DNA of 64,000 bases, taken from Pseudomonadota bacterium. Lineage in GTDB: Bacteria; Pseudomonadota; Gammaproteobacteria; Eutrophobiales; Eutrophobiaceae. Positions within the stretch are counted from its first letter, which is position 1. The number at the start of each line of letters is the position of its first letter. The stretch is from positions 1,205,415 to 1,269,414 of the forward strand of contig JAYQJO010000001.1 of assembly GCA_038142205.1 (NCBI GenBank), written 5' to 3'. The notes under the pieces are model-generated. The model ran no database searches and was not told the DNA's origin. It saw only the letters and a program-made list of their open reading frames with translations. This document shows, piece by piece, positions 21,136-43,788 of this stretch. The translations under genes and the position numbers were made by a program.

Positions 21136-21216
21136 AATTAATAAACCTTATTATTTAATATTGTAATTATCTAAGATGAACCTTCTGCATGTTGAGAGTT
21201 TTTGATTATATCCCTA

Positions 21217-21879: not shown

Positions 21880-21889
21880 AATATTTTTC

Positions 21890-22696: not shown

Positions 22697-22743
22697 AAAT
22701 TATGGATATCGTAATTAAATGATTAATAAGTTGAGAATTATAC

Positions 22744-25114
22744 ATGAATAACTATGTAATTTGGTTTGAAAAACTGGGAATGAACGATGTCGAAATCGTT
22801 GGTGGTAAAAATGCCTCTTTAGGTGAAATGATTTCTAATCTTGCCGACTCTGGTGTCATGGTACCAGGAGGATATGCAACAACAGCTGATGCATATCGTG
22901 AATTTCTTAAACACGAAGGACTTTCAGATCGTATTAATAAAAACCTTTCTGATCTTGATGTCGACAATATTGAACACCTTACCGCCGCCGGTAAACAAAT
23001 CAGACAATGGATCATAGATGCCCCATTTCCGCCACAACTTGAAAAAGAGATCAGTGAAGGTTATGTAGAATTGGAAAAGAGAGCAGGTAAAAATGTATCT
23101 GTTGCTGTTCGCTCTTCAGCAACAGCAGAAGATCTCCCTGATGCCTCTTTTGCCGGTCAACAGGAAACCTTTCTCAATATTCGCGGCATTGATGACATTT
23201 TGTTTAGAGTAAAAGAAGTGTTTGCCTCACTTTATAATGATCGCGCTATCGCTTATCGCGTTCATCAGGGTTTCGAACATGAAGTGGTTGCATTATCCGC
23301 AGGCATACAACAAATGGTACGCAGCGATTTGGGCTCAAGTGGTGTCATGTTTACTTTGGATACTGAATCAGGTTTTGATGATGTTGTTTTTATTACCTCA
23401 TCATTTGGTCTGGGTGAGTGCGTTGTTCAAGGTTCAGTTAATCCTGATGAATTCTACGCCTACAAACCTGCACTTGTAGCAGGTAAGCAATCTATATTAC
23501 TGAGAAATATATATGGGTAGTAAGGCAGAGAAAATGATCTTTGATGAGTCAGGAGATAACCCCACGATAATTATCAAGACTTCAGAGTCTGAACGTACAA
23601 ACTTCTCCCTCAATGATGAAGACATAGAAGAGTTGGCACGCTATGCCTTAACAATAGAAAAACATTACGGCCGTCCGATGGATATCGAATGGGGTAAAGA
23701 TGGCGAAAATGGCAAACTCTATATCTTGCAAGCCAGACCTGAAACCGTCAAAAGCCGCACAGCAGGCAAAAGCATAGAACGTTATATCATGAATGAACGC
23801 TCTGATATTTTAGTAACAGGAAGAAGTATTGGCCAACGCATAGGTAGCGGACCTGTAAAAATTATTTCAGATATAAAATATATGGATGAAGTAAAAGAGG
23901 GAGATGTGCTGGTAACGGATATGACTGATCCTGATTGGGAACCCATCATGAAACGCGCTTCGGCAATTGTCACCAATCGTGGTGGTCGTACCTGTCATGC
24001 AGCAATTATTGCCAGAGAACTCGGTATCCCTGCTGTAGTTGGAACGTCCAACGGAACAGAAAAACTTGCTGATATCGATGAAGTTACCGTTTCATGTTCT
24101 GAAGGCGATACAGGTTTTATCTATGAAGGCATATTGCCGTTTGAATTAAAAAATATTCAACTCGATTCTATGCCGGAAATTGATTTAAAGGTGATGATGA
24201 ATGTGGGTAATCCCGATCGCGCTTTTGACTTTGCCTCTTATCCAAACCACGGCGTCGGTTTGGCACGACTCGAATTTATTATTAACAGAATGATCGGCGT
24301 ACATCCCAAAGCCTTGATCAACATTGATACTATGCCAAACAACATCAAGACAACTATTCAAAAAAGAATTTCAGGTTATCGTACACCCGTTGATTTTTTT
24401 ATCGAAAAATTAACAGAAGGTATTGCAACATTAGGGGCTGCCTTTGCACCTAACCCTGTCATTGTTCGCATGTCTGATTTTAAATCTAATGAATATTACA
24501 ATCTCATTGGCGGAGATCAGTTTGAACCAAAAGAAGAAAATCCGATGCTTGGCTTTCGTGGTGCGTCTCGATATATTTCAGAATCATTCAGAGACTGTTT
24601 CGAAATGGAATGTAAGGCGTTTGTGAAAGTCCGTAATGATATGGGACTCAGCAATGTTCAATTAATGGTACCATTTGTACGAACGGTAGACGAAGCAAAA
24701 CAAGTCACCGAACTGCTAAAAGATAATGGTCTGGAACGAGGTAAAGATGGCCTTAAGGTGATTATGATGTGTGAATTACCTTCAAATGCATTATTAGCAA
24801 AAGATTTCCTTGAATATTTTGATGGGTTCTCTATAGGTTCCAATGATTTAACACAATTAACATTGGGATTGGATCGAGACTCAGGTCTGGTTGCAGATAA
24901 ATTTGATGAAAGAAATCCAGCAGTAAAAGCAATGCTACAGATGTCTATCAAAGCCTGTTTGGAAGCTAAAAAATATATTGGCATTTGTGGTCAAGGTCCA
25001 TCGGATCATCCTGATCTGGCGCAATGGTTAATGGAACAAGGCATCGAAAGTGTTTCTCTTAATCCAGACACGGTCATTGAAACATGGTTATCATTAGCAG
25101 GGGAATCTATTTAA
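22744..25114 (+). CDS. ppsA: Phosphoenolpyruvate synthase (PpsA), frameshifted in an A/AT low-complexity stretch at 23495-23510
   Basis: ORFs 22744..23520 and 23513..25114 are colinear with PpsA: ATP-grasp N-domain, phosphohistidine domain ...[24 protein letters not shown], and PEP-utilizing C domain. The junction ...[13 protein letters not shown] maps to the linker. Confidence 0.85.
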
Positions 25115-25158
25115 AATTTATTTTTAAATAAATTCCATTTTATCCCGGGAGAATAAAA

Positions 25159-25788
25159 ATGGCAAAATTACTCTATATTGAAGCATCACCACGTAAAGAG
25201 CGTTCTCATTCTATACAAGTCGCTCACGCATTCATTGATACTTATAAAACAGCAAACCCAGAAGATGAAATAGAAACTTTAGATTTGTGGTCAATTGATC
25301 TCCCCTCTTTTGATAACAATACGATCAATGCAAAGTACGCTGTACTACACGGTGAAACACATACTCAAGAAGAAGCTGATGCATGGAAAACAATTGTTAC
25401 TCATGCCGAAAATTTCAAATCTGCTGATAAATATCTATTAAGTATTCCTATGTGGAACTTTGGCATCCCCTATAAACTAAAACATTATATAGACGTTATT
25501 ACCCAACCCGGCCTGACCTTCAGCTTCACTCCCGAAGAAGGTTTTTCTGGCCTGGTTAATGATAAACCTGCTACTGTTATTTTTTCCCGAGGGGGTGAGT
25601 ATGCACCCGGCACACCGACAGAAGCTTTTGATTTCCAAAAGCCCTCTATTTTAGGCTGGTTAGGATTCATTGGTTTTACTTCTATAAATGCTCAGGAAAT
25701 TGAACCAACACTTGCACCACCCGAAGTAGTTGAATCAATTCTTAAAGAAAACTGTACTAAAGCTAGCAATATTGCTAAAAGCTTTTAG
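25159..25788 (+). CDS. azoR: FMN-dependent NADH-azoreductase (AzoR / flavodoxin-like fold)
   Basis: 209 aa with N-terminal LYIEASPR and overall AzoR-like pattern. Confidence 0.7.
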   Translation: MAKLLYIEASPRKERSHSIQVAHAFIDTYKTANPEDEIETLDLWSIDLPSFDNNTINAKYAVLHGETHTQEEADAWKTIVTHAENFKSADKYLLSIPMWNFGIPYKLKHYIDVITQPGLTFSFTPEEGFSGLVNDKPATVIFSRGGEYAPGTPTEAFDFQKPSILGWLGFIGFTSINAQEIEPTLAPPEVVESILKENCTKASNIAKSF

Positions 25789-25818
25789 AAAGAGATAGAT
25801 AATAATAACTTATTAAAA

Positions 25819-26883
25819 TCAGGTTTTAATATCCGTTTTATCTTTGTTTGATAAATGCTTATTTAATTCGAATTCTTCAGCTAGTAATTGGTATGATCGT
25901 TTTCGATCTTCAAAATCATAACAGACATTAACCACTGTTATTTCATCTGCATCATATTCTTCAGCAAGTTTATCCATTTTGTTACGACATTCTTCCGCAG
26001 TACCAATGATCATTGAATTCAACGTTTCATCATAATAAGCCTGATCTTCAATCGATAATGTTTGTTTAAGATTTAAGCAATCTTCAGGTGGCAACAGTGG
26101 AATACGTACACCATGTCGAAACGCCTGTACTTTCCAGTATGTGTGAGTGCTGGCAATACGAATAGCCTCATCCCTATCCTCAGCACATATCACTGCAACT
26201 GCTAGCATTACTTTTGATTTCTGTTGATCTGTCATTGGTTTAAATGCATTTCGATAAGCATCAATAATCCCTGTTGGTCTATCATGTGTGCCAATAAATA
26301 AAGCCAACGCAAAACCAGCACCAACTTGTCCGGCAAATTCAGCGCTACCTGCACCAGAGCCCAGCAACCATAATTCAGGAACGACTTCTGCTTCGGGGAT
26401 TGTTTTTAAATTATAATAAGGATGGTCCGTAGGTAAACTATCATGTAAAAAACCACTCAAGTCAGATACTTGTTGCACATACAACTCAGCACTATTTGGA
26501 TAGTTTGGATAGGCTAATGCTGATGCAGCAATTGAATTTCCACCGGGAGCCCTGCCCACACCAATATCTATTCGATTTGGATGCAAGCTTGATAATAGAC
26601 GAAATGTCTCAGCAACTTTATAAGGACTATAATGAGTTAACATAACACCACCGCTACCGACACGTAGGTTTTTTGTAGCGCCAGCAACTTCAGCAATCAT
26701 AATCTCAGGACAAGAACAAGCGTAGCCCTCAGTATCGTGGTGTTCTGCAATCCAGTACCGATAATAACCCAGGGCATCACATTGTTTTGCTAATTCTATC
26801 GTCTGGGCTGGCGCTAAATGAGAAGGTAAATCGTTATGAATGGGTATTTGATCTAAAACATTGAACTTATATGAACGGCTCAT
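25819..26883 (-). CDS. Luciferase-like monooxygenase (LLM-class flavin-dependent oxidoreductase)
   Basis: 354 aa with TIM-barrel LLM signature (YWIAEHH, GVGRAPGG). Confidence 0.7.
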   Translation of the reverse strand: MSRSYKFNVLDQIPIHNDLPSHLAPAQTIELAKQCDALGYYRYWIAEHHDTEGYACSCPEIMIAEVAGATKNLRVGSGGVMLTHYSPYKVAETFRLLSSLHPNRIDIGVGRAPGGNSIAASALAYPNYPNSAELYVQQVSDLSGFLHDSLPTDHPYYNLKTIPEAEVVPELWLLGSGAGSAEFAGQVGAGFALALFIGTHDRPTGIIDAYRNAFKPMTDQQKSKVMLAVAVICAEDRDEAIRIASTHTYWKVQAFRHGVRIPLLPPEDCLNLKQTLSIEDQAYYDETLNSMIIGTAEECRNKMDKLAEEYDADEITVVNVCYDFEDRKRSYQLLAEEFELNKHLSNKDKTDIKT

Positions 26884-27036
26884 ATGATATTTAAAAGAAA
26901 AAAAATATTACGTTGTTATTAAATGATTTAAATATATCAACCAATATAAGTGAGGTTATCAAAAGGTTTTTACACCTTCACTCGAATACATATTAAAACA
27001 TCGGCATGATGGTATACATCATGCCGATAATAGTGA

Positions 27037-27956
27037 TTACGTTACAACCTGTAGGAATCTATCATTAAGCTCTCTGCTATGATAAAAAATTGCCTGACCA
27101 AGATGATCGGGAGTCCATGTTAAAACGGGACTATCTGGATATCGATAACTGTCTTCACAGAAAACTTCATTACGATTACCAGAAGGATCAAAGAAGTAAA
27201 TCGTTTGTCCCCGAGTTAAGCCATGTCGTGTTGGTCCAATATCCAGTGGGATATCTTTCATCGAAATGATGTCTGCCGCACGTAATACATTTTCCCATGT
27301 GTTCAACATAAATGAAGCATGATGCATTTTATTTTTTCTTCATGACGGATAAATGCAACGTCATGGGCCTTATGTGAACAACTTAGAAATGCAGCAATCT
27401 GTAATTCACCATCGACAACCTGTTCAGCCACATCAAATTCCAGAGCTTCTGTAAAAAGTTTAACGGTACCATCTATATCATCACCATAGAGTAAACAATG
27501 GTCAAAACGCACTGCTTGCATTCCTTGCAAACCCTCTGGCCAGGGTCCAGGATTTGTTGTTGGTAATCCATTGCCATACACCTCTTTTTCTGCATACAGT
27601 TCAAAAGTATGACCCGTTGGCGAATCAAATCGGACACGTTCACCACAGTGGTTTAATTCACCAGCAGCAATACGTTCAACATTACAACCAAATTTCTTAA
27701 TGTTATCCTCAAGTCGCAGTAACGATGCTTCGTTGTCTACCTTGAACGCCATGTGATCCATGCCCGGGCTATCGTTCTTTTGTAATACCACCGAAAACCA
27801 ATCATGTTCATCCCAGCATTTCAAATAAACACGCCCTTGATCGTCTCTATCCGTTTCAATTAAACCCATATTCTCAGAATAATGTTTTACCGATTCATCT
27901 AAATCCAACACATTAATCATTACATGTCCTGGTCTCATTACGCCTGTTATTGCCAT
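27037..27956 (-). CDS. Catechol 2,3-dioxygenase (extradiol, XylE/DmpB type), frameshifted in the T4/T6 runs at 27327-27338
   Basis: ORFs 27303..27956 and 27037..27327 are colinear with XylE: GVMRPGHV...DDQGRVYLK...AHDVAFI then [22 protein letters not shown]...[22 protein letters not shown]. The junction lies in poly-A on the coding strand. Confidence 0.85.
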
Positions 27957-27997
27957 TATTATTTACCTCTTTTAAACATAATTTATTATCAAGTGTA

Positions 27998-28339
27998 CTA
28001 ACTATTTTTGTTTGTGTTTAATGATTTTACATGTGTTTCACTAAACTCAGATTTCATCTTTCCTAATACGTTTAATTTGATATCCGATCTGGGAAACACC
28101 CTGCATGCTAGTACAATATCTTCATTTTGTTCTTCTTCACTAACATGATTACGACTCATGATTCCAGTTTGATACTGCCCGGATACAATCCTTATTTTAC
28201 ACACGCCACAACCACCATTACGACAACCTACCGGAATACCCTTTCGCCCTAATCTGAGCATGCCTTTAAGCAAATGTTCCTGCTCATAACATTCAAACAT
28301 TTCATTACTATCGTTGATGGATATATTAAATTTTTTCAC
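27998..28339 (-). CDS. Plant-type [2Fe-2S] ferredoxin of the XylT/DmpQ type (catechol 2,3-dioxygenase reactivation)
   Basis: 113 aa with CRNGGCGVCK...C cluster, immediately upstream of the C23O gene as in xylTE/dmpQB. Confidence 0.75.
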   Translation of the reverse strand: MKKFNISINDSNEMFECYEQEHLLKGMLRLGRKGIPVGCRNGGCGVCKIRIVSGQYQTGIMSRNHVSEEEQNEDIVLACRVFPRSDIKLNVLGKMKSEFSETHVKSLNTNKNS

Positions 28340-28369
28340 TAAAACAGATTATTGAAATAGCTTACTTTT

Positions 28370-28414
28370 AAAAAAAAAAAAAGGTAATAGTCTTAAATTA
28401 TTAAGACTATTACC
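28370..28414 (-). terminator. Rho-independent terminator (perfect 14-bp stem, 4-nt loop, then T13 on the minus strand) downstream of the DUF1329 gene
   Basis: ggtaatagtcttaa-atta-ttaagactattacc with A13 on the plus strand (T13 on the transcribed strand). Confidence 0.8.
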
Positions 28415-28481
28415 CAATTTGTCTTTATTTATTAAATGGCATAATTTTATATTTAAAAAACTATGTCATCCAGTTACATAG

Positions 28482-29906
28482 CTATTTATAGTCGCGTAAC
28501 TGATCCACATCAAACATTTCTTCAGAAATACGACCTTCTCTGTCATCCCATTGTGGATCCATGAACAGAGATGACATACGTTTGGTGATGTAATTGTTCA
28601 CCATTACATAGCGCCACTGAGCATCACCCTCGGTTGGTCTCCAAGCACGACTATCTTCCCAGTTTCTAAATTTATTACCGCGTGGGTCCTCAGTTACATG
28701 ATACTGCATGTAGTAAAATTCTTTATCGACCCAGGTACGTCGTTTTGAATACATATACTTCCCAGTCTTGTCTTTAATATCAAGAATCCAGACAGGTCGA
28801 AGTTCAAGCTCTAATGATTTGTAGTTACATTGATCATCCGTCAATACAGCTGAATCATAGATATAACCGACTTCAGGCGAAGCCAATATCCAGCCTTCAC
28901 CGGCAATTTCATAATCAAATTTAGTGACATCCGTTTTACCCCAATAAGCACGCCAGTCGTCCCAGGTAAGTTCCTGCCCGGATGCAATTGGATCTTGTGC
29001 ATCTGAGCCTGTCAACGTACGAGTTCGACGTAGGCTCGGAATGAATACTTTAAAGTCATCATCCTTATCTGCTTCAGGATAACGTTGTCTCACACCTGCT
29101 AGGCCACGTATATCATTTGGCTCAAGAAAGAAAATTGAACCACCCTCAATAAAATCTTCTTTACCCTCAACGTCTCCAACAGGACCGACATTCTGTCGAT
29201 TATGGTAATGCCACCACCACAAATCAGCCTTGTATTCAGAATCAAGTTTACCGTTTGCCGTACATGCACGCATGTGAATGGGTTCAAAATCAAGCGTGTC
29301 CGTATTGACCGAGTGAGCAACATAAGACCAGTTCAATTCCAGACCGTTTTTAGGATTTAAAAATGGAACAGAAGTAGCACCCGGACCACTCATCAAGGCA
29401 TAACTGCCATCAGGATAGAGTAACTCGCCTCTTTCATTCACTTGAAGCTCGATATTCTTTTCTTTTAATTCTTTTGTACCCGCCAAGTAACCTTTATGCA
29501 TGTAATAAGTATTGGTAGGGACAATCGTAATTTCCTTGATGTTGCTCCAGTCAGACGTCAGATGGTCTAACATTTCAGCTGGCAAATAATCTTTTAACCA
29601 GGGAAATTGCGCCATATTATCTTTGGTAATTTTAAGACCGGGTTTTAAATCGTCCGGTAAATTTGCGTTTTCCATAAGGTCATAAGCGTCATACCCACGC
29701 ACGTCTTTCCATTCTTTAGCAAGCGCAATTGCTTCCGGTTTTGAAATTTCATCGACCCATTTTTGGTGGTTTGGATTGCCACTAGTTGCAGCAAAGGCTT
29801 TCCAGGCTTCTAATGCCTTATTGGTGTCTGCACTGACGATTGGTGACAGCAGCAATGATGCTAAAGCTATTGCTGTCACTGTTGATTTTACTAATAGTTT
29901 CCTCAT
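28482..29906 (-). CDS. DUF1329-family secreted protein (partner of DUF1302; annotated in databases as outer-membrane lipoprotein-sorting-like)
   Basis: 474 aa with signal peptide and conserved C-terminal motifs (WDDWRAYWGK, EFYYMQYHVTED, RNWEDSRAWRP). Sits directly downstream of a DUF1302 gene. Confidence 0.75.
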   Translation of the reverse strand: MRKLLVKSTVTAIALASLLLSPIVSADTNKALEAWKAFAATSGNPNHQKWVDEISKPEAIALAKEWKDVRGYDAYDLMENANLPDDLKPGLKITKDNMAQFPWLKDYLPAEMLDHLTSDWSNIKEITIVPTNTYYMHKGYLAGTKELKEKNIELQVNERGELLYPDGSYALMSGPGATSVPFLNPKNGLELNWSYVAHSVNTDTLDFEPIHMRACTANGKLDSEYKADLWWWHYHNRQNVGPVGDVEGKEDFIEGGSIFFLEPNDIRGLAGVRQRYPEADKDDDFKVFIPSLRRTRTLTGSDAQDPIASGQELTWDDWRAYWGKTDVTKFDYEIAGEGWILASPEVGYIYDSAVLTDDQCNYKSLELELRPVWILDIKDKTGKYMYSKRRTWVDKEFYYMQYHVTEDPRGNKFRNWEDSRAWRPTEGDAQWRYVMVNNYITKRMSSLFMDPQWDDREGRISEEMFDVDQLRDYK

Positions 29907-29982
29907 CTTTGTTTCTCCTCAACATTATTGTTGGGTATTAATTACATTTAAAAATAGCTTAATTTAATACTGTTACTTGACC

Positions 29983-31994
29983 TTAGAATTGATAAGTTAA
30001 AGAAAATTCAACAAAATCCTTATCATCATATATTCCAATCGGGGCAGTTTCTGCTCCACCATCAAAAAACATCGCTTCTATTCTTGGACGCCAGTTTTTA
30101 CCGAAGTAGTTAAAATCAATTCTCTGTCGATAAAACGTGCCTTGTTGATCAAAGTCGCGGATGAACAGACCTTCGAAAACCAAGCGTTGTTGATGCAAAG
30201 GCGCACTCCATAGGAGAGTCACATATTGATGATCCTCAGCCACTTCACTAAAGGCATAGGGTGCTTGTACCAATAATCCTTCATCAGCATCAAAAGTATG
30301 GATATTGAAAAACTGAAAACTGGTAAAGATAGACTTTTCCTGAGTATCCCAGCCCGGTATCCATAAAGGATAATCAAAACCAATCATGGTAGAAAGAACA
30401 TCACTTTCTGTAATAGCATCACCAGATAATTGTGCTAATGCACCACTGCCTCCCACTGTACCTCCATTAAGAGGCAATGCAGTTCCTGGGGGTAGAATCC
30501 CTAATGCTTCAGCTAAAGGTACTGTACCCGTCGTTGGACTTGCAACTCTTGAACGGTTGAATTTCTTACCAAATTCATAAGAAGCCTCGAATCGAAGTGA
30601 AGGTGAGGTGTTTTTTGGTCCAAAGCGGAGGGCTTTGAAATCACCCATGTCTCGAGTAAAGGTAAAACCAAGTACTCTCTGTCGAGCTGTATAATCCAAA
30701 TTAACAATACCATTGATGGAACAAGGTACTGTACCAGCAATTAGTCCTGTTGGGTCAATACATGTTGGTGTTCCTAGAACACCCCCTGCCGCTGCTGACA
30801 AAACTGATAATGGGCTAGCTATCGTAGGTGCAGCGCCTGATTGGAATTGTCTGAGAAACGCTAAATACCCACCTGTACCAGGACCTAAAAAGCCAGCCGC
30901 CCCATTTACGACGGTCGCTACATCAGCTGCTGATAAAGGGACTGCACCAGCGGCACCACTTGAGTTGTTAAAGGCATCTCCAAGGAATAACGTTCCTCCT
31001 TCTAATGTCAATACTGGTAGATCTTGTCTACCATAAAAACCATTAATCGTCGCTTGACCACCGAGGGTGTCAAACTTCAAACGAGCTGAATATTCCGCAT
31101 CATCTAGACTCCAACGTTTTGATGTCTCTTCTCTGATATCAAAACCAAAACCAACAAAACCGGCCCCTGAAACATTATCACGAACATCTGGATAAGGCAG
31201 ACCAAAGGCACCACCTGAGGTAGGACCACCGGCAGTACTTGGAGTAGGATTGTTGATATTAAAACGACTATGATGAACCTCTGGTGTTATATTAACTTCA
31301 AGACTGGGCGCTTCATTCCTAATGATTCGAAAGCCTTCCCAATGCCCATTTTTTTTAGGTTAAAGTCAGCAGAGATCATGAAAGCTTGCACGCGTAATTC
31401 ATCTGAATCACGAAATGCAAATCTTTCACGCAGATCTTGTGCATGCAGTATATCCATTAATCGCAGCCCATCTGATTGACCCCAACCACGCTGTTGTTTA
31501 CCAATTTTGATAGTAAAGCGATTTTTCTTATCACGATATTTGACCGACAATTCCCGTAGAACTTCATTTAAATCATTAAACTGACTTTGTTCATGTGAGT
31601 TTGAACAAAAGGTATCTGTCAAAGATCCTGTACAGTTGCCCCTGTTCACATGATATGGCAAACCTTGACGAAACAAAGCAGAAGGATTTGTTACATCAAA
31701 AGGATTTTTGATACTACTATTTTGCCTAAGAAAATCGCCGCTTTTAGGCGCAAAATCACCTCGTAGCCATGCATTTGCAACAAACGTCCATTGTCTACTT
31801 GGTCGCCATGACCATTTGGCTTCAGCCAAATAATTGGTCGGACCATTGGTGACACCCTGATTATCGAGATCAAACAGTGCCGATGTCCCTTGTTTAATAC
31901 GGCCATTAAGCGTGTATTTTTTACCTGCAGCTGTGGCCTGAAAACTGGTAAGGATTAACACCAGAGTGATAAGAAAACCTATACTGTTTTTCAT
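29983..31994 (-). CDS. DUF1302-family outer-membrane protein (~670 aa), frameshifted in T8 run 31349-31356
   Basis: N-terminal ORF 31287..31994 has a signal peptide. C-terminal ORF 29983..31080 ends in an aromatic C-terminal residue typical of beta-barrels. The intervening segment reads through in-frame (NGHWEGFRIIRNEAPSLEVNITPEVHH...RLKFDTLGG) if the A-run is 9 rather than 8. Confidence 0.7.
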
Positions 31995-32100
31995 TTTTTG
32001 ACTCCCCTCAAATCAAATAATAATAAGAATGATAAAAAAAATTATTTATTTTTAACAATTTCAATCAGTTAAATTTTGTTTATCATTTAAAAACTTAAAA

Positions 32101-32141
32101 ATAACACCAAATAACACCAAAATAACACCAAATAACAACAG
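32101..32141. repeat. Tandem direct repeat, 3 perfect plus 1 degenerate copies of ATAACACCAA(A), upstream of the DUF1302 operon
   Basis: ataacaccaa ataacaccaa aataacaccaa ataacaacag, read directly. Confidence 0.7.
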
Positions 32142-32359
32142 TTTCTTGATGATACAAAAAAGATTGATTAATAAATTACAATACTATTAAGCAAAAAATA
32201 CACCAAATAATTTTTTCTTTTATTATCAATAACTTAATATATAAACAATAAATATTATTTTATAAATTTTGCCATATTATTAATTCTGATTATCTATATG
32301 ATAATTTATATTTATTGTTTTCTTGTCTCGTTTCTCCAAATTCAGTTTAAATACGCATT

Positions 32360-34678
32360 CTATTTGTTTATTTTAAATATCGCGCGTGGTTTAAATATGG
32401 TTAATGCTGCTGGTATAAATAATAAGGAACCCAGCATATTCATAAATAAGACGACGCCTAATAGCATGCCCATTTCTGATTGGAAGCGTAACGGCGACAT
32501 AAATGCCCAGGGTAACAACGGACCAATCATGGTAATTGCCGTAATAAAAATGGCGTTACCGGATGTACGAAATGCATTTTGAACAGCCTCGTAGATACTC
32601 TCTATATTTTTGCCGTATTCCTCTTTGATCCTGTCTACCATGTATATACCGTAATCAACACCTAGTCCGACACCTAGCGCGGTCAATGGTAAAGTGCTCA
32701 CATTCAAACCAACACCCTTCCAAGCCATAAAAGCATAAGTCAGCGCATTAGCAGTTGCTAAACTCAATAACAGAATTAATGCCACGACCAGTGAGCGGTA
32801 ATAGAGCACAATACAGGCACCGATTACTAACACAATAGCTATCATGATATTCCGATTTGATCTGGTGATTTCTGCATTCAATGCCTCAACAATGCCCACT
32901 TGCCCGCCTGAGTATAGGAAAGTAGCTTTACTGACCTGTTCAGCCTTGTTATCAAAAAATCCTTTGAGGGTATTCGTCATTTTTTCAATTGTTTCTACGC
33001 TATGATCTTCTAGAAAGAATGAAATATTACCTATTTCCCATTCCTTGTTAGTAAAGGCTGCAAAGTCACCCGGCTCACCACGGGAGCGATACATATAAAT
33101 ATCGAAACCTACCTCTTTTGTGGTATCAGGTATCAACTCATAAGAAGGGTCACCTTCAAACAGTACCGTGTTTACCAATTTGATGATGGGAACCAGACTT
33201 TGAGCAGGGCGCACTTCAGACATATGTTCATACATATAACGATCCATTGCCTCAGTCTGATGATAAACACTAGGATCTAGCATGGTGTTTTCATCACCTT
33301 CGATATAAACCTGCATCATATCTGAACCTAAAAATGAAAAGCGGGTATTAATAGACTCTGAATCGAGATTAAATCTGGAATCAGGCCAAAGAATAGCACT
33401 CCCCTTAGTATCACCAACTGCCAAATTACTCGAGTAAGACATACCAAGGACCAATAAGGTTAAGGTTGCAACCATCATTATATATTTATGATGTTCAAGA
33501 TTGATCACGGCTGACCAGATTGAGTTAAGAATAACCGAACCGGTTTTATGTGTTTTAGGGATTTTAATTACACATAATAAGCATGAACCAAAGATAAGGG
33601 CAGGAATGATAGACAATAACCAGACACCGCAGATCAATGCCAAACCTTTAATACTTGGAATCGCCACTAGTCCCAATACCAGAAAACCTGCTGCATCAGT
33701 AATAATGGCAGCGGTACTGGGTACTAATAATCGTCCTAGTCCTTGCCGTGTGCACTCCCGGAGATTTTTTTGTCTAGTTTTACAAGCATTAAGATTATCA
33801 AGAATACGAGTTGTTAATTGAACAGCATGTGACAATACGATAGCAAAGATAAAGGCCGGTAACAGGATCAAAAGTGGATCTAGATTATAGTGCAAAAATC
33901 CCATTGCCCCTAGTCCCCAGATGGTTGCCACTGTTGCGGTTGTCATAGGTACAATTACCCCAACCCATGTTTTAAAATATAAAAACAAAACCAGAGCAAC
34001 AATTAAAAAAGAAACGAGCATAATGCCAAAGACGGCATCCAATGATTGGTAAATATAACCCAGTAGTATAGGTCTGCCGACTACATTAATAGACAGGCTC
34101 TCATCTTCCATCTCTGCTTTTAGATCATCGAAAAATTTTAATATTTCTTCAAAATCAGCCTCATCTTTAAAATCGGCAATCACCATCGCAGAATTTTCAT
34201 CGTCAGAGACTAGAAAACCTCGGTATTGAGCATTGACAGCTTGGCGAAATTTAAGCATATCTTGTTCATTCTGAGGAATATTTGGCCACATGATAGCGGT
34301 AACATTAACGGTACCACCTGACCCAGTAATTGCCTTTGTTTTCTTTAAAACTAAAGACTGGCTTAAATGTCGGTGTGTATCTGGATGGTAGTAAATATCT
34401 TCTGCAATTTTCTTATATTTATTAAGAAACTCTACGTCATAGATGTCACCCTGTTCATTTTTAATTTCGATTAGCGTCGTATTCGCACCACCAAATTGGG
34501 CACCAAATCTTAAGAATAAATCAACATTTTTTGCACCTGCAGGTAGCATTTCTTCTAATACAACATCAAGGGATAACCCATGATAAGCATAATAAGCAGG
34601 GACACTAGTGAGAGTCAGGAGGATAAGAAGAACGGTCCAAGCTCGCTTGCAAACAAAATCGGCAAATCGTTGTATCAT
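32360..34678 (-). CDS. RND-superfamily / MMPL-type (sterol-sensing-domain-like) membrane exporter
   Basis: 772 aa, two blocks of ~6 TM helices each preceded by large periplasmic loops, as in MMPL/HpnN-type RND proteins. The 4-bp overlap with the upstream BNR gene indicates an operon. Confidence 0.7.
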   Translation of the reverse strand: MIQRFADFVCKRAWTVLLILLTLTSVPAYYAYHGLSLDVVLEEMLPAGAKNVDLFLRFGAQFGGANTTLIEIKNEQGDIYDVEFLNKYKKIAEDIYYHPDTHRHLSQSLVLKKTKAITGSGGTVNVTAIMWPNIPQNEQDMLKFRQAVNAQYRGFLVSDDENSAMVIADFKDEADFEEILKFFDDLKAEMEDESLSINVVGRPILLGYIYQSLDAVFGIMLVSFLIVALVLFLYFKTWVGVIVPMTTATVATIWGLGAMGFLHYNLDPLLILLPAFIFAIVLSHAVQLTTRILDNLNACKTRQKNLRECTRQGLGRLLVPSTAAIITDAAGFLVLGLVAIPSIKGLALICGVWLLSIIPALIFGSCLLCVIKIPKTHKTGSVILNSIWSAVINLEHHKYIMMVATLTLLVLGMSYSSNLAVGDTKGSAILWPDSRFNLDSESINTRFSFLGSDMMQVYIEGDENTMLDPSVYHQTEAMDRYMYEHMSEVRPAQSLVPIIKLVNTVLFEGDPSYELIPDTTKEVGFDIYMYRSRGEPGDFAAFTNKEWEIGNISFFLEDHSVETIEKMTNTLKGFFDNKAEQVSKATFLYSGGQVGIVEALNAEITRSNRNIMIAIVLVIGACIVLYYRSLVVALILLLSLATANALTYAFMAWKGVGLNVSTLPLTALGVGLGVDYGIYMVDRIKEEYGKNIESIYEAVQNAFRTSGNAIFITAITMIGPLLPWAFMSPLRFQSEMGMLLGVVLFMNMLGSLLFIPAALTIFKPRAIFKINK

Positions 34679-35874
34679 TTTTCATCTCCCCAACGGTTTG
34701 TCACTAATTTCACATTCTTTGAAGACGCGAGATTAAAATCCGGTACATATGTCATCTCTTTTAAACTTCCAGATACTACAAGACCGCGTATTCCAGGTGA
34801 CCATATCGTTCCGTTTGGTGTAATAGCGACGCCACCCAACCAGATATAAGCAAGCGGAAAGCTAGCTTCCGTTTTCAGCTCACTCACTATTGCGCCGTTA
34901 ACTTTCAACATCGTTGATTTACCTGCCACAATCGCCTCACCATTATCGGACATGGCAATATCAAAAAGATGTTCATTCGTATTCGATTCAATTTTTTCTA
35001 TATGATACTCAATCTCACTCGTCGGTAATTGTTCAACCATAGAGGGAATGTATTCTTTTTTGAGTCGTTTCGCTTTTGCCCGAGCTTTCTTTTCTTTTTT
35101 TGCCGCATCTTTCAAGAGCTTTGCTGCAATCTCTTCACGTTGTTCATCTGTTGCAATACTCAACTGCGCGATATTGCCATCAAGCCCGACAACATAAGCT
35201 CTATCACCTACACCAGAAATAGCTAACCAGGTGGTTTTATATTCATTAGGGGAGACTAACCAGGTAACTCCAGCATTTTCGGTATGTGCAATGGTGCCGA
35301 ACTCACCCACCAAAATGGCATTGTTAGCATCTTTCGCGTAGATACCATGTAATCTCGGTTTATCACGTCCAATAAAGCCAAGTAGATTTTGTTGTTGCCA
35401 TGAGTGACCCCCGTCACTGGTATGCCAGATACCTGTATTATGCCCAACTATCCAACCATTGTTTTCATCCACAAAATCAATGTCTCTCAAATAGATGCCT
35501 GGGATTTCCTTTTGAACTTCCCAGGTTTGTCCTGCATCTGAGGTATGAAAAATTGAACCACGATGACCTACAGCCCAACCCGTATTCTCATTGACAAATG
35601 AAAGTCTACGAATAAGTTCATTTCGACCTATATAAAATGCATCCCAGTTTTTACCGCCATCTTTCGTGCGTAAAACAGTGCCGCTATATCCTGCAATAAA
35701 ACCAACATCATTATTTACAAACTCTACGGCATAGAGATTATCTGGCCAAAAACGATGGAAATTGCCTGGTTCTGCCTCATTTTGAGAGAAGGTAACCACT
35801 GGAGATAAAAATATCAGAACCAGGCAAATAAACCGTATTATAAAGTATGATTGATTTGAATATGTATGTTGCAA
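34675..35874 (-). CDS. Ycf48-like / BNR-repeat beta-propeller protein with signal peptide and a Lys/Ala-rich coiled segment
   Basis: 399 aa with repeated GxxG[WY]xVG, TxDGGxTW and S[DN]G..W BNR/Ycf48-type motifs. Confidence 0.6.
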   Translation of the reverse strand: MQHTYSNQSYFIIRFICLVLIFLSPVVTFSQNEAEPGNFHRFWPDNLYAVEFVNNDVGFIAGYSGTVLRTKDGGKNWDAFYIGRNELIRRLSFVNENTGWAVGHRGSIFHTSDAGQTWEVQKEIPGIYLRDIDFVDENNGWIVGHNTGIWHTSDGGHSWQQQNLLGFIGRDKPRLHGIYAKDANNAILVGEFGTIAHTENAGVTWLVSPNEYKTTWLAISGVGDRAYVVGLDGNIAQLSIATDEQREEIAAKLLKDAAKKEKKARAKAKRLKKEYIPSMVEQLPTSEIEYHIEKIESNTNEHLFDIAMSDNGEAIVAGKSTMLKVNGAIVSELKTEASFPLAYIWLGGVAITPNGTIWSPGIRGLVVSGSLKEMTYVPDFNLASSKNVKLVTNRWGDEK

Positions 35875-36149
35875 AATGGCTCCACAAACTTAAAGCAAAA
35901 ATACGAAGATATTATTTTTTTTAATTCTAGCACTTTGTATGCCACTCTATTTTTATGATTAATTTCAATATATTACTTAAATTTCTATATTATTTTTTAT
36001 TATAATTTTATCATATCATTAATTAGACTGCCTTCTTAAACAAGCGTCAACTTTTGATCACTAATTGCTATTATGTGATTAGGTATACTTAGGTTATCAA
36101 ATTTAATCTGTTACTCTACAATTTACCTTTAATTTAATGGATTGCAGAT

Positions 36150-37558
36150 TTGATGAACCAATATTTATTATCTCTTTGTATCTTGCTTATTTGGTCAGTT
36201 TCAGTCACTGCTGACACGAATAAAGCGCTGGACGAATGGCGCACTTTTTCAGAAAAAACAGGAAATTCGAATCATGCTAAATGGGTCGAAGAGATTTCTA
36301 AACCAGAAGCAATTGAACTAGCCAAACGCTGGAAAACGCTACGAGGTTATGATGCACATGACTTGATTGCTGAAGTTGATCTACCAGCAGATCTCAAAGC
36401 CGGTTTAACTATTAAAAAATCAGATGCCACTAATTTTCCATGGTTAAAAAAATACATGGCAGATGAGATGTATCGGGCGTTATCTACAAAAGAAGGGTAT
36501 ATAAACTCTATAACGATAGTTCCAACAAATACTTATTACATGCATGCTGGCGTATTAAGTGCGACACAAACTATGCTTGATAATGGCATTGTCCCTAAGA
36601 CAGACGCTAGCAGCACGTTGCTAAACCCTGATGGCACGGTTACCTTGCTAAATAATGAAACCGCTAGCGCTATTCCTTACCTGCATCCCAAAAATGGTTT
36701 GGAACTGAACTGGTCCTATGTTGCGCATGGCGTGGGCACAGAAACATTATACTTTGATCCGATTCAAGCAAACGCATGTGATGCTAATGGAAAAATAGAT
36801 CGTGAATATACTGCTGTCATGTGGTGGCAGAAATTTCACGGCAGATCACAGATTGGAGATGAAAAAGAAGTATTTGGCATGGAAGAATTTATTGAAGGGG
36901 ATCAATCTTTGCGCAATCACCTTATGACGTCCGTGGTTTTACTGGTGTCAGGCTTCGCTATGGTGATGGCACAAAATCTGATGATTTTAAAATATATTTA
37001 CCCGCCACAAATCGAACTCGCACTTTAACCGGGACAGATTCGCAAGATCCAATGTGGGCTGGACTTGAAATATCATGGGATGATTGGCGAGCCTATTGGG
37101 GGAAAACGAATATAGATCAATTTGAGTACAAGCTACTTGGTGAAACACTCATTCTTGCATCCCCGGAGGTCGGTTATGTTTATGATTCAAGAAAATTAAC
37201 CGATTCAGGATGCAAAATAGAATCGATGGAACTGGAACTGCGTCCCGTTTGGATATTGGAGATCACTGATAAAACCGGTGCTTATCAATATAAAAAGCGT
37301 ACAACTTACATTGATAAAGAATTTTATTACATGCAGTACCATGTGACGACAGATCAACGTGATAATGTATTTCGAACCTGGGAAGATAGTCGCGCCTGGC
37401 GACCTTCCGATGGTGATTCCCAATGGCGACATATTACCATCCACAACGAAATGAATAACCGAATCAATATCATCGATGCCACGGCTGTATGGGAAGGCCG
37501 TGCAGAAGAAGTAACCGAAGAGCAATTTGATGTTGATCAATTACGCGACTATCAATAA
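36150..37558 (+). CDS. Second DUF1329-family paralogue, frameshifted at G4 run 36897-36900
   Basis: ORFs 36150..37028 and 37052..37558 are colinear with the 28482..29906 protein. An alternative frame across 36900-37080 restores GSIFAQSPYDVRGF...TNRTRTLTGTDSQDP...SWDDWR. Confidence 0.7.
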
Positions 37559-37585
37559 CGTTACGTTTAATAACCTAACCTTAAA

Positions 37586-38566
37586 ATGAAAAAAACCAAT
37601 GCCTCGGTAATTCACAAAACTGGAGGCCCTGAAGTTTTCAAGTTTGATGAAGTTAATCTTCCTTCTCCAAACAAAGATGAAGTGATCATCCGTCATACTG
37701 CAATAGGTGTAAATTATCTTGATACCTATTACCGCTCCGGATTATACCCTATCGACTTACCGGCAATTTTGGGAGATGAGGGTGTCGGGATTATTACAAA
37801 AACTGGTAAGGGCGTTACTGACTTTAATATCGGTGACCGAGTCGCCTACCCTGCTTGTAGTGGTGGTGGTTACGCTGAGACACGTGTAATAAGTAGCAAG
37901 CATATTGTTCCAGTACCTGAAACAATTACAGATGAAATAGTTGCGGCAAGTTTATTACGTGGAATGACTGTAGAGTATCTAGTGCGTCGCTTATATCAAA
38001 TAAAATCGGGCGACACGATTCTTGTACACGCAGCCGCAGGAGGAGTGGGTTTAATATTATGTCAATGGGCCAAACATTTGGGTGCAACGGTCATTGGAAC
38101 TGTTAGCACTGAAAGTAAGGCAAGAATTGCTGCTGAACATGGCTGCGATTTTCCCATTATTTATACCGAAGTAGATTTTGTTAAAGAGGTTAAAGAAATT
38201 ACCAAAGAAAAAATGGTCGATGTTGTTTATGACGGCATTGGCAAAAAAACGTTCATGGACTCTCTTGATTGTTTGCGACCAAGAGGATTGATGGTAAGTT
38301 TTGGCAATGCTTCCGGCAAACCTGAGCCAATTGATGTGCTGGAACTGGCAAAAAGAGGTTCTTTATTTGTTACACGACCAACATTATTTGAATACGCCAG
38401 AAAACAATCAGAATTACTCGCTGGAGCAAAAGCTTATTTTAATATGCTTGAGCAGGGCATCATTAAAATAACAATTGGTAAGCGCTTTCCTTTAAGAGCT
38501 GCCTCTGAAGCGCATCAATACCTGCAAGATAGAAACCAAATCGGCGCACCTATTTTATTACCTTAA
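37586..38566 (+). CDS. qor: NADPH:quinone oxidoreductase (Qor, zeta-crystallin-like MDR family)
   Basis: 326 aa with AAAGGVG Rossmann motif and quinone-oxidoreductase-type MDR layout (no catalytic zinc ligands). Confidence 0.75.
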   Translation: MKKTNASVIHKTGGPEVFKFDEVNLPSPNKDEVIIRHTAIGVNYLDTYYRSGLYPIDLPAILGDEGVGIITKTGKGVTDFNIGDRVAYPACSGGGYAETRVISSKHIVPVPETITDEIVAASLLRGMTVEYLVRRLYQIKSGDTILVHAAAGGVGLILCQWAKHLGATVIGTVSTESKARIAAEHGCDFPIIYTEVDFVKEVKEITKEKMVDVVYDGIGKKTFMDSLDCLRPRGLMVSFGNASGKPEPIDVLELAKRGSLFVTRPTLFEYARKQSELLAGAKAYFNMLEQGIIKITIGKRFPLRAASEAHQYLQDRNQIGAPILLP

Positions 38567-38617
38567 CTGCTGATGTGAGTGCGATAGTGTTTACTATGAT
38601 CAAATATAATTTATTAA

Positions 38618-38640
38618 CTTAACCAGCTGAGCTACGCGCC
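38618..38640 (-). other. Orphan tRNA 5'-end fragment (acceptor stem plus D-arm GGCGCGTAGCTCAGCTGGTTAAG), not continued into a full tRNA
   Basis: Minus-strand sequence matches the conserved tRNA 5' region including the D-loop TAGCTCAGCTGG, but no anticodon or T arm follows. Confidence 0.35.
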
Positions 38641-39064
38641 TATATAATTATCTCGGACATCTAATTATTGTCCTTAAATAAAGGCGGCATAGAATACAAA
38701 ATTGCAGATAAAATACAACGTATATTTAATTATTGATTTTATCCTAACTTACTTTTTTAAATCCGATTGAACCATATCATTGACCAATTCTTCACAAAGA
38801 GGCTTTTATATTTCCAACTAAGCTCTTTTTTGCTATAGATGGCTATCCTAGCAACGTTTCAACCTCAGTAGGAAGGTAATAACAAGAATCTATTTCTATT
38901 AAAGCGCGATATATTCCATATGGCTCACGATAGCTTACAGTTATCCAGTACGTGTAAATTTTTGCCGCGTCTATTTAGAAACTCAGCTAATAAAACACCA
39001 TCTTATTCGGCGACTACTGCAATCAATGCACGTTTACTCATTAAACAATCATTCCTCATAAAAT

Positions 39065-40011
39065 TTACATTCTTACTATGTCGTTATTATTAGTAAACCA
39101 TTCATAATATTTTTCCAATCCTTCGCGAAGTTTAAATTTGGCTGTCCACCCAATCTTTGTAAGTTTGCTAACATCTAGTACTTTTCTAGGCATACCGTCA
39201 GGTTTAGTGTTATCAAAAACTAATTCACCTTGATAACCAATACATTCTTTTACTCTGTAAGCAAAATCTTTTATTGAAATATCCGTCCCAGTGCCAATAT
39301 TTATATGAGAATCATCTGAATAATGTTTCATTAAAAATACTAAAGCATCCGCCAAATCATCCACATATAGGAATTCACGTTTAGGTTTCCCCGAACCCCA
39401 CACAATACATTCTTTTTCATCATTAATTTTTGCATTATGAAATCGTGATAATAATGCCGCTGGCACATGCGAATTTTCAGGATGAAAATTATCACCGGGC
39501 CCAAATAAGTTTGTCGGCATTGCGGAAATGAAATCGACACCATATTGCCGTCTATATGATTGACATAGCTTAATACCTGCTATTTTGGCTATGGCATACC
39601 ATTCGTTAGTAGGTTCAAGTTCGCCTGTTAGTAATGCATCCTCCGTGACAGGTTGTGTCGCATTTCTTGGATAGATACAAGAAGCTCCTAAAAACAACAG
39701 CTTTTCTACATCATTAATAATGCATTATGTATAAGATTAGTTTCGATCATCAAATTGTCATAAAGAAACTCAGCGGGATAATGACTATTCGCATATATTC
39801 CGCCTACCTTTGCAGCAGCGATAATTACCACATCTGGTTTATTTTTCTTTAACCATTTTGATACAGAATGACCATCTCTTAAATCCAGTTTATCTTTAGT
39901 TACAGTTAGAATTTCACAATCTTCACTATTTAATCTGTTAATAATTGCACTTCCCACCATTCCATTATGACCTGCAATCCATACGCGCTTGTTTTTTAAT
40001 TCATAAATCAT
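39065..40011 (-). CDS. fcl: GDP-L-fucose synthase (Fcl; GDP-4-keto-6-deoxy-D-mannose 3,5-epimerase-4-reductase), frameshifted at ~39714-39719
   Basis: ORFs 39706..40011 ([24 protein letters not shown]) and 39065..39697 ([55 protein letters not shown]) are colinear with Fcl. Confidence 0.8.
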
Positions 40012-40039
40012 CCAATCACCAACTGATTCTTAACAATTA

Positions 40040-42061: not shown

Positions 42062-42135
42062 TTCTCTATTTAGTCTATTGAGTCTTTCGAGTATATTACA
42101 TCGCTTTTATAACAAGCTATTTTAAATCGAAGACA

Positions 42136-43326: not shown

Positions 43327-43377
43327 TGATGGTTGACCATACTTATCACCATCAGTAGACTACACACCCTTAGATAT

Positions 43378-43453
43378 TCCCCGGTAGCTCAGTCGGTAGA
43401 GCGGGTGACTGTTAATCACTAGGTCGGCAGTTCGAGCCTGTCCCGGGGAGCCA
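43378..43453 (+). tRNA. tRNA-Asn (anticodon GTT)
   Basis: Manually folded cloverleaf: acceptor TCCCCGG/CCGGGGA, D-arm GCTC-AGTCGGTA-GAGC, anticodon loop CTGTTAA, T-arm GGCAG-TTCGAGC-CTGTC, discriminator G, encoded CCA. Confidence 0.85.
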
Positions 43454-43460
43454 TATAATA

Positions 43461-43490
43461 GCCTTAAAGTAATAACTTTAAGGCTTTTTT
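43461..43490 (+). terminator. Rho-independent terminator after aspC/tRNA-Asn
   Basis: gccttaaag-taataa-ctttaaggc followed by T6. Confidence 0.7.
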
Positions 43491-43788
43491 ATTTCGTTGA
43501 GAAATATATAACTATTAAGTTAGTTATCTCTCTGAATCCTATATAACCTGTATTACTATAATCTTTCTAAAACTCTTTTCTAAACCCATTTCGAAACTGT
43601 TAAATATAAAAACAGCATTTAGCCATGCAACAACAAGAGCAAAATATTAGTCTTGAAAAACGAGTAAAAAGTTTAGCTAATTATCTATAGAAATTTAATT
43701 TATTATTCTGTTTTATAACTCTCAAAGAATTTAACAAGCTCAACCATTGCCTCAGTATCAAATTTACAATACCGCTTTAATTGGCTTT

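Follow-up and report, generated by a model that had tools for sequence, protein, structure and literature searches.

A putative AmeABCD-type envelope transport cassette of an aromatic-linked subfamily beside catechol 2,3-dioxygenase genes in a gammaproteobacterium

A stretch of 64,000 nucleotides (nt) from contig JAYQJO010000001.1 (positions 1,205,415 to 1,269,414; assembly GCA_038142205.1) of a gammaproteobacterium of the Eutrophobiaceae was analyzed with a focus on a cluster of genes for envelope proteins. These encode a DUF1302 outer-membrane protein, a DUF1329 protein, an RND-type inner-membrane protein, and a Ycf48-like beta-propeller, and they are located next to the gene of a catechol 2,3-dioxygenase (C23O). 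The full stretch is referred to as the window; all coordinates are window positions, and L-numbers denote the homologous loci that were compared. On the minus strand the cassette is arranged in the 5' to 3' order propeller, RND, a 365-nt AT-rich gap, DUF1302, a 76-nt gap, and a first DUF1329 gene (DUF1329-A). It is followed on the same strand by a terminator, the genes of a XylT-like ferredoxin and of C23O, and a second terminator, whereas a second DUF1329 gene (DUF1329-B) and a quinone-reductase-like gene run divergently from the cassette. The listing of open reading frames (ORFs) reproduced the coordinates, strands, and gene order given in a preliminary description of this DNA. DUF1302 and DUF1329-B, which had been described as single ORFs, are however each split by a deletion of 1 nt, and the same applies to C23O. 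The features are as follows.

18398..20096, minus strand: XylR/DmpR-type sigma54 activator (Pfam Sigma54_activat 242.9 bits, XylR_N 77.6 bits)
26999..27029, minus strand: terminator past C23O
27037..27956, minus strand: C23O, split into 27303..27956 and 27037..27327
27998..28339, minus strand: XylT-like [2Fe-2S] ferredoxin (Pfam Fer2 59.8 bits)
28382..28415, minus strand: intrinsic terminator past DUF1329-A (15-bp stem and T-run; -20.3 kcal/mol, z = -6.5)
28482..29906, minus strand: DUF1329-A, 474 amino acids (aa), intact (Pfam LolA_like PF17131 37.8 bits)
29983..31994, minus strand: DUF1302 outer-membrane beta-barrel, split into 31287..31994 and 29983..31080
32191..32205, minus strand: weaker sigma54-like motif TGGTGTATTTTTTGC, 197 nt upstream of DUF1302
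32360..34678, minus strand: MMPL/HAE3-type RND inner-membrane pump, 772 aa (Pfam MMPL 104.6 bits, ACR_tran 44.5 bits)
34675..35874, minus strand: Ycf48-like BNR beta-propeller (Pfam PSII_BNR 84.1 bits)
35930..35944, minus strand: sigma54-type -24/-12 motif TGGCATACAAAGTGC, 56 nt upstream of the propeller start
36153..37558, plus strand: DUF1329-B, 56% identical to DUF1329-A, split into 36150..37028 and 37052..37558
37586..38566, plus strand: NADPH:quinone reductase-like protein (NCBIfam PRK10754 337 bits, cut-off 348)

Pfam and NCBIfam searches together with AlphaFold2 (AF2) models and Foldseek comparisons support the proposed DUF1329, MMPL/RND, and BNR/Ycf48 families. The DUF1302 assignment required repair of the reading frame by means of L001, a Logan contig from SRR11524960 that is 99.79% identical to window positions 22359..43494. 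The repaired protein (670 aa) obtained 28.6 bits on PF06980 (gathering cut-off 23.2), whereas of the two fragments encoded in the window the C-terminal one stayed below the cut-off (20.2 bits) and the N-terminal one had no match to this model. Among the subfamily members 25 of 44 match PF06980, and the orthologue P0129, which is 85% identical to the DUF1302 protein, reached 41.7 bits. The AF2 model of P0129 is a large porin-like barrel (pLDDT 77) for which Foldseek retrieved MOMP, OmpF, OccK8, AlgE, and chitoporin with TM-scores of approximately 0.5; the DUF1302 protein also carries a signal peptide. In DUF1329-A a signal peptide is followed by a helical domain in the N-terminal part, and the C-terminal part forms a LolA-like open barrel. 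In the Pfam scan it matched LolA_like PF17131 only and had no match to PF07044, a model that recognized 37 of 46 subfamily members including proteins 79–84% identical to DUF1329-A. Its AF2 model has a pLDDT of 91.4, and the C-terminal half was most similar to LolA3 (9tp6; E = 2e-19), the DUF1329 structure 4z48, 3bk5, and 3buu. The intact form of DUF1329-B (P0329, 468 aa) scored 65.8 bits on PF07044, and the C-terminal fragment in the window 34.6 bits (cut-off 23.1). No NCBIfam model matched the DUF1302 or DUF1329 proteins, and an Rfam search over 26.5–38.8 kb gave no matches.

The propeller gene starts with TTG behind a GGAG Shine-Dalgarno sequence and ends in an ATGA overlap with the RND start codon. 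According to hydropathy the propeller has a hydrophobic N-terminal signal or anchor segment. It scored 91.8 bits with the NCBIfam Ycf48 model, which is below the cut-off of that model, and at residues ~238–285 it carries a conserved, probably helical insertion of ~36 aa rich in K, R, and E (…DEQREEIAAKLLKDAAKKEKKARAKAKRLKKEY…). This insertion is common to L002, L089, L087, and Cycloclasticus but absent in L086 and in the homologue on the plasmid of Aromatoleum EbN1. The best NCBIfam match of the RND protein is TIGR00921 (HAE3), with 142.9 bits over residues 15–760 of 772 and E = 1e-41 at a curated cut-off of 351.9. Its hydropathy profile, which resolves two TM bundles (~8–371 and ~613–755) and loops at ~27–203 and ~372–612, agrees with the RND topology of 12 transmembrane (TM) segments, two large periplasmic loops, and charged TM residues. 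Across 24 homologues there is no variation at D267 (within YNLDP) or at D675/Y676 (within GVDYG); we take these residues to be analogous to the MmpL3 proton relay, and they are placed in TM4 and TM10 by the same analogy. MmpL3, MmpL4, and HpnN are the nearest relatives with solved structures, the similarity being confined to the TM7–12 region (E ~1e-12).

These four families are the constituents of AmeABCD from Castellaniella defragrans 65Phen, which is induced on monoterpenes and whose deletion lowers tolerance and raises Nile Red influx; AmeD was placed in a distinct HAE3 lineage that is always accompanied by these partners (PMC6394551). Like AmeABCD, the cassette in the window combines a DUF1302 protein, a LolA-like DUF1329 protein, a COG4447/Ycf48-like propeller, and a probable HAE3 RND protein in four contiguous genes inside a catabolic island for hydrophobic substrates. 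The two differ in gene order, which in ameA-B-C-D is DUF1302, DUF1329, propeller, RND and in the window propeller-RND-DUF1302-DUF1329, and in context, which is monoterpene degradation in the former and aromatic degradation with an extra divergent DUF1329 gene in the latter. The RND protein is 31–32% identical to those of the Thauera and Zoogloea cassettes, a figure that does not refer to AmeD itself. The cassette thus belongs to a type that has already been described, and within this type it is a member of a well-delimited subfamily linked to aromatic compounds. It most likely constitutes an AmeABCD-type four-component envelope-spanning transporter that is built on an HAE3-family RND protein, is intact in vivo, and falls into this narrow subfamily.

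The cassette resembles the HAE1 pumps TtgABC, SrpABC, and AcrAB-TolC in its proposed role, which is to span the two membranes and confer tolerance to hydrophobic aromatics at the expense of the proton gradient. However, no HlyD-type or TolC-type domains were detected by Pfam and NCBIfam in the ORFs of 25.1–38.6 kb, and the propeller, LolA-like carrier, and porin-like barrel present in place of such an adaptor and channel have unrelated folds. With the Lol pathway it has only the fold in common: LolA and LolB are proteins of ~20 kDa that operate with the LolCDE ABC transporter, whereas DUF1329-A has 474 aa, an additional helical domain, TM-scores of 0.2–0.5 to true LolA, and is encoded with an RND protein. 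HpnN functions in the absence of DUF1302, DUF1329, or propeller proteins dedicated to it (PMC6394551).

The sequence neighborhood of the RND protein is narrow. Its relatives, labeled as Thiotrichaceae, Gammaproteobacteria metagenome-assembled genomes (MAGs), and Cycloclasticus, are 92%, 80%, and ~76% identical in gammaproteobacterial MAGs and ~71% in Cycloclasticus, followed by 46–56% in some Alphaproteobacteria. This subfamily (“clade A”) has at least 46% internal identity and only 30–34% identity to the cassettes of Pseudomonas, Thauera, Zoogloea, and Burkholderiales. An exhaustive search over 1.84 billion cluster representatives defined a family of 540 representatives (50% identity) at E ≤ 1e-30, in which the subfamily forms essentially one 50%-identity cluster (bit scores 962, 635, and then ≤498). 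A search of plasmids retrieved only distant cassettes (≤31%). The order propeller, RND, DUF1302, DUF1329 was found in every clade-A locus with sufficient flanking sequence and also on the Aromatoleum EbN1 plasmid. As had been proposed, the gene set recurs in hydrocarbon degraders, namely Cycloclasticus, Porticoccaceae, Thauera, Zoogloea, and Immundisolibacter. The duplication of DUF1329 is likewise a recurrent trait: extra DUF1329 copies occur in L011, L013/14, and L087/88 and extra DUF1302-DUF1329 pairs in some Cycloclasticus loci, and DUF1329-B is closer to the second copies of relatives (≤67%) than to DUF1329-A (56%). In L089, the 80%-identical relative, three unrelated opposite-strand genes for DUF3034, amidohydrolase, and epimerase proteins (12421–16047) are located between RND and DUF1302, and the propeller-RND and DUF1302-DUF1329 halves are therefore separable. 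In L086, from MAG OFTM196, three tandem tyrosine-recombinase genes and another integrase precede the cassette, and an aniline-dioxygenase-like set (GS-like, GATase, Rieske alpha and beta, reductase) and then ferredoxin-C23O come after it (394–7924 and 16129–22412). This layout suggests that the cassette is carried along with a mobile catabolic module; a second cassette (L022) occurs in this MAG.

The hairpin and T-run past DUF1329-A agree with the proposed terminated DUF1302-DUF1329-A operon, and they also qualify the claim that the cassette is physically joined to the XylT-C23O operon. The two are indeed adjacent, but the strong terminator lies between them. The arrangement with XylT-C23O directly past the cassette is not unique to the sequenced strain; it was found in the window's own clade (L001–L006), while in one other lineage (L023/L086) XylT-C23O is located 5.6 kb downstream behind aniline-dioxygenase-like genes. 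Because of this restriction to a single clade and one further lineage, the junction is not a general feature of the subfamily.

The association of the subfamily with aromatic catabolism is general, unlike that junction, as judged from gene neighborhoods. Loci were collapsed at 85% RND identity, and genes of ring-hydroxylating dioxygenase alpha subunits, multicomponent phenol/toluene monooxygenases, C23O, and benzoyl-CoA reductase within 10 kb of the pump were counted. Such genes were present near the cassette in 13 of 18 clade-A lineages compared to 3 of 30 distant ones (odds ratio 23, Fisher p = 1.6e-5). The cassette lies co-directionally downstream of monooxygenase genes in L019 and L021, a monooxygenase begins 40 nt past DUF1329 in L024, and a XylR-type sigma54 activator is encoded immediately upstream of the cassette in L008–L011, L024, and L030. 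In Cycloclasticus the cassette is situated between dioxygenase genes of the type acting on polycyclic aromatic hydrocarbons, and in L089 it abuts benzoyl-CoA-reductase-like genes. The literature searched contained nothing on the expression of the cassette genes in Cycloclasticus. Within the window, three oxygenase systems occupy the left third (532–17003), consisting of a Rieske dioxygenase set (2072–4158), a toluene/benzene-type four-component monooxygenase (7342–12060), and a DmpKLMNOP-type phenol hydroxylase (12350–16949). Orthologues of the quinone-reductase-like gene at 37586..38566 are located upstream of the propeller gene in L012–14, L018, and L087/88 and have been kept beside the cassette in Cycloclasticus, and a flavodoxin-like quinone reductase gene is intact in the window at 25159..25788. 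Speculatively, these two quinone-reductase-type genes together with XylT and C23O would be compatible with the handling of catechols or quinones.

Promoters of the sigma54 type are a common attribute of inducible catabolic operons. The motif TGGCATACAAAGTGC upstream of the propeller gene is part of a block conserved with L002–L006, whereas the remainder of the spacer has diverged. The 350 nt preceding the propeller gene were searched for a relaxed sigma54 pattern in the appropriate orientation; matches were present in 16 of 80 loci (~10 lineages) compared to 1.6 expected from the background rate, an approximately 10-fold excess. In the gap between RND and DUF1302, TGGTATCTATTTTGC in L002–L006 is the counterpart of TGGTGTATTTTTTGC. 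The XylR/DmpR-type gene, which is frameshifted into three ORFs (18398/19435/19773) and adjoins the phenol hydroxylase cluster, encodes the sole sigma54 activator in the window and is by inference a candidate regulator of the cassette. Further good sigma54-like motifs occur beside this gene at 16989–17003 (minus strand) and 17248–17262 (plus strand). Between TGGTGTATTTTTTGC and the DUF1302 start, a tandem repeat of GGTGTTATTT (3.8 copies, minus strand, 32099–32137) that is absent in L002 and L004 could be a binding array of a regulator or a product of simple slippage.

The split reading frames raise the question, independent of any assumption on transport direction or cargo, whether the locus is a decaying relic in which the frameshifts are real and the system is non-functional in this strain. 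The disruptions are present in the deposited sequence, the genome is small (~2.66 Mb), and one frameshift in the neighborhood probably is real, as it is common to independent Logan contigs: ppsA (22744–25114; 22744/23513) has a +1-type break that yields ORFs of 258 and 533 aa, while the adjoining ppsR (21890–22696) is intact. Against this, L001 is intact at all three sites, with proteins of 670 (DUF1302), 468 (DUF1329-B), and 306 aa (C23O). Relative to L001, the window has lost one base in each gene, at ~31298 in DUF1302 (GG to G), at ~36896 in DUF1329-B (G5 to G4), and at ~27331 in C23O (A7 to A6). An exact look-up found the fragments of the broken genes in a single NCBI contig only, whereas the identical intact C23O (306 aa) occurs in 4 other contigs (JGI, Logan) and the intact DUF1329-B in 2 Logan contigs.

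The same kind of lesion is scattered across the whole window, which contains at least 11 frameshifts of the -1 type, or about 1 per 4–5 kb. In nearly every case one base has been lost from a short run, and neither nonsense mutations nor larger lesions were found among the gene breaks. Affected genes encode the TmoA-like hydroxylase (10559/11668; 10559–12060), the XylR-type activator described above, the DmpP-like reductase (12350/13036; 12350–13416), a DUF2779 protein (43789–45186), and also housekeeping functions, including an AsnB-like protein (56219/57628; 56219–58170), an epimerase (39065–40011; split at 39718, T3 to T2 relative to L001), and a WbpM/CapD-like protein (46691/47521; 46691–48429), in which the break probably is of the -1 type as well. 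Base-by-base comparison located another defect of the window at 43795 (A7 to A6). In a 16-kb core the window and L001 differ by 8 indels and 7 substitutions, so that indels match substitutions in number. For the three broken genes dN/dS between L001 and L002 (~79% nucleotide identity) is 0.03–0.05, and over five cassette genes including the broken ones it is 0.03–0.12, values that indicate strong purifying selection. Considering the intact 99.8%-identical twin, the intact copies elsewhere, the window-wide -1 deletions, and the parity of indels and substitutions, the breaks in DUF1302, DUF1329-B, and C23O are attributed with high confidence to errors in the assembly consensus and not to pseudogene formation, as judged from sequence comparison, and decay of the locus is very unlikely. 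The many single-base deletions point to an error-prone consensus throughout the assembly, and caution is needed before any gene in it is regarded as a pseudogene.

A programmed -1 frameshift at the A8 run CCTAAAAAAAATGGGC of DUF1302 (~31347–31354), which contains a perfect A_AAA_AAA site, was considered and rejected because L001 is identical at this run and reads it in frame, the actual change being at 31298. L001 has a frameshift of its own (C6 versus C5) in the flavodoxin-like quinone reductase gene (L001 18889–19519, corresponding to window 25159–25788), and neither assembly is therefore free of errors. The 7 substitutions relative to L001 in the cassette region are mostly G/T transversions, and ~45 single-nucleotide polymorphisms are found in the uvrB/aminotransferase region (38900–44800), a distribution that points to heterogeneity among strains or to recombination, with some errors in one of the assemblies in addition.

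The folds and targeting signals of the four proteins match those expected of a proton-driven pump in the inner membrane, a propeller and a hydrophobic-ligand carrier in the periplasm, and a channel in the outer membrane. As for function, the most probable reading, at about even odds, is a system for aromatic-induced, proton-driven trafficking of hydrophobic aromatics over the envelope. Outward transport would be the favored direction because export is the usual activity of RND proteins and the phenotype of the Ame deletion is that of lost efflux. In such a system, an aromatic effector would activate the XylR-like regulator, and the cassette would be transcribed from the sigma54 promoters. The RND protein, driven by protons, would pull aromatics, either the substrate or phenolic and catecholic intermediates, from the outer leaflet of the inner membrane or from the periplasm, with the propeller serving as the periplasmic adaptor of the pump. 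The cargo would then be passed to the DUF1329 carrier and from there to the DUF1302 barrel, which would discharge it into the outer membrane or the medium, and DUF1329-B might be an alternative carrier. Export of this kind could limit membrane load and toxicity during degradation of the compound by the monooxygenase and meta-cleavage enzymes, the cassette serving as a valve for tolerance or overflow.

Several points weigh against this interpretation. The subfamily is known from sequences and predicted structures, and the direction is deduced from RND precedent and one deletion study, in which the RND protein is ~31% identical. The RND protein does not reach the curated HAE3 score. That the frameshifts are errors was deduced by comparing assemblies rather than reads, and the ppsA frameshift is probably real. 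The sigma54 motifs are pattern matches, and a window-wide search allowing 2 mismatches found 45 compared to 45.7 expected, which is no enrichment; only the position, conservation, and cross-locus count of the motifs thus carry weight. The queries of the neighborhood test were taken from clade-A loci, the lineages are not phylogenetically independent, and 5 of the 18 subfamily lineages have no aromatic genes nearby. Finally, the recurrent duplication of DUF1329 and DUF1302 beside a single RND gene is more typical of substrate capture, and published mutant phenotypes fit uptake at least as well as efflux. In Pseudomonas putida, mutants in the DUF1302/DUF1329 pair PP_0765/PP_0766 and in the propeller/RND pair, in which PP_2018 is encoded with the RND protein PP_2019, have specific defects on Tween 20 and butyl stearate, on which they fail to grow (bioRxiv 10.1101/2020.07.04.188060). 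These proteins represent the same four families as in the window, but the Pseudomonas pairs are encoded at separate loci, are LuxR-regulated, and have fatty-ester phenotypes, whereas the window has a single locus with sigma54-type motifs in an aromatic context and an RND protein ~31% identical to that of Pseudomonas.

These mutants are one argument for an acquisition system, in which the DUF1302 barrel would admit poorly soluble aromatics, the duplicated DUF1329 carriers would ferry them over the periplasm, and the propeller-RND pair would receive them or energize their transfer to the inner membrane, where they would become available to the cytoplasmic oxygenases. AlphaFold-Multimer predicted DUF1302-DUF1329 and DUF1329-propeller-RND complexes for Pseudomonas (PMC10866462, PMC13499233), and the authors of Foldy proposed a substrate transport system (PMC10866462). 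In Delftia Cs1-4, DUF1302 and DUF1329 proteins encoded in the phn island were found in outer-membrane and outer-membrane-vesicle fractions of phenanthrene-grown cells (PMC3110197), and deletion of the DUF1329 gene is cited in PMC13101534 as impairing growth on phenanthrene. Zoogloea oleivorans carries the order DUF1302-DUF1329-YnfA-ferredoxin-C23O-phenol hydroxylase, which resembles that in the window, and Zoogloea DUF1302-DUF1329 pairs near C23O and phenol hydroxylase genes lack an adjoining RND gene (PMC7012976). A ‘Nanopod’ cluster of porin, DUF1329, Ycf48, and MMPL genes is among the most highly expressed in the anaerobic benzene degrader ORM2a (PMC13101534). DUF1302/DUF1329 genes are thus found beside phenanthrene, phenol/toluene, p-cresol, or benzene genes in Delftia, Zoogloea, Thauera (pipAB), and ORM2a (PMC3110197, PMC7012976, 10.1101/072470, PMC13101534), but these belong to other sequence subfamilies than the genes in the window, and several have no adjoining propeller-RND pair. 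The embedding of the cassette in catabolic operons and the duplications next to a single RND gene in Cycloclasticus and L011 also point toward acquisition. On the other hand, deletion of AmeABCD raised dye accumulation and cut tolerance (PMC6394551), and growth defects on hydrophobic substrates may stem from toxicity. To our knowledge, no RND-superfamily protein drives net import. Acquisition is accordingly regarded as a tentative alternative that is clearly less probable than aromatic trafficking with export. More doubtful still is the possibility that the subfamily is a dedicated machine for aromatic-hydrocarbon capture and delivery, working inward or as a bidirectional buffer, in which the DUF1329 and DUF1302 paralogues would set the specificity for different aromatics. 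If this were true, it would represent a new entry route for hydrophobic substrates in marine hydrocarbon degraders, alongside FadL/TodX channels. AupA/AupB of Marinobacter, of which AupA is FadL-like, was considered as another possible relative.

The cassette could also be a housekeeping exporter of an endogenous envelope component, such as a lipid or outer-membrane constituent, in the manner of HpnN or MmpL3, and the proximity of aromatic genes would then reflect envelope remodeling under solvent stress or coincidence. In random barcode transposon-site sequencing of Shewanella, Kangiella, and Pseudomonas, the four genes showed cofitness (bioRxiv 10.1101/072470; 10.1101/2020.07.04.188060), and based on pleiotropic cofitness Price et al. 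proposed ‘export of a cell wall component’; they also pointed out that clusters for phenanthrene, p-cresol, and steroids contain DUF1329 genes (bioRxiv 10.1101/072470). The solved structures nearest to the RND protein are those of exporters of lipids or siderophores, the DUF1329 fold is that of the LolA lipid/lipoprotein carriers, the cassette on the EbN1 plasmid sits amid beta-oxidation genes, and 5 of the 18 subfamily lineages lack aromatic genes in the vicinity. The strong multi-lineage association with aromatic oxygenase clusters and XylR-type activators speaks against such a role, as do sigma54 promoters of the kind found in inducible catabolic operons, and the paralogous cassettes in one MAG (L022 and L023) argue for accessory, substrate-linked functions. 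A housekeeping exporter is thus considered improbable, ranking below acquisition.

Cassettes of DUF1302, DUF1329, propeller, and RND genes are widespread in Proteobacteria, where mutant phenotypes have been obtained without a defined cargo, direction, or structure of the barrel or pump (PMC13499233). The characterization of this gene set as poorly described therefore needs to be narrowed to its mechanism: AmeABCD, the transposon-sequencing data, and the reports on aromatic clusters already exist. Similarly, comparative genomics and the sigma54/XylR signals link the subfamily to aromatic catabolism, in line with the suggested role in aromatic transport, but the novelty of the system had been overstated. 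What the locus adds is a subfamily whose context points unusually clearly to aromatics and to sigma54/XylR control, and this context narrows the candidate ligands and inducers. It is also relevant to the way in which obligate hydrocarbon degraders of the sea, among them Cycloclasticus and its relatives, cope with substrates that are toxic and dissolve poorly.

Two other regions of the window were conspicuous. The ring-hydroxylating dioxygenase cluster includes a gene for a 381-aa multi-pass membrane protein (4234–5379, minus strand) without a Pfam or NCBIfam match, which may be an uncharacterized transporter for the dioxygenase pathway. Between 45000 and 64000, the GC content falls from ~39% to ~31% over a surface-polysaccharide/O-antigen-type cluster that encodes a nucleotidyl transferase, a DegT aminotransferase, glycosyltransferases, a Wzy-like protein, and two asparagine-synthase-like proteins; this low-GC cluster may have been acquired horizontally.

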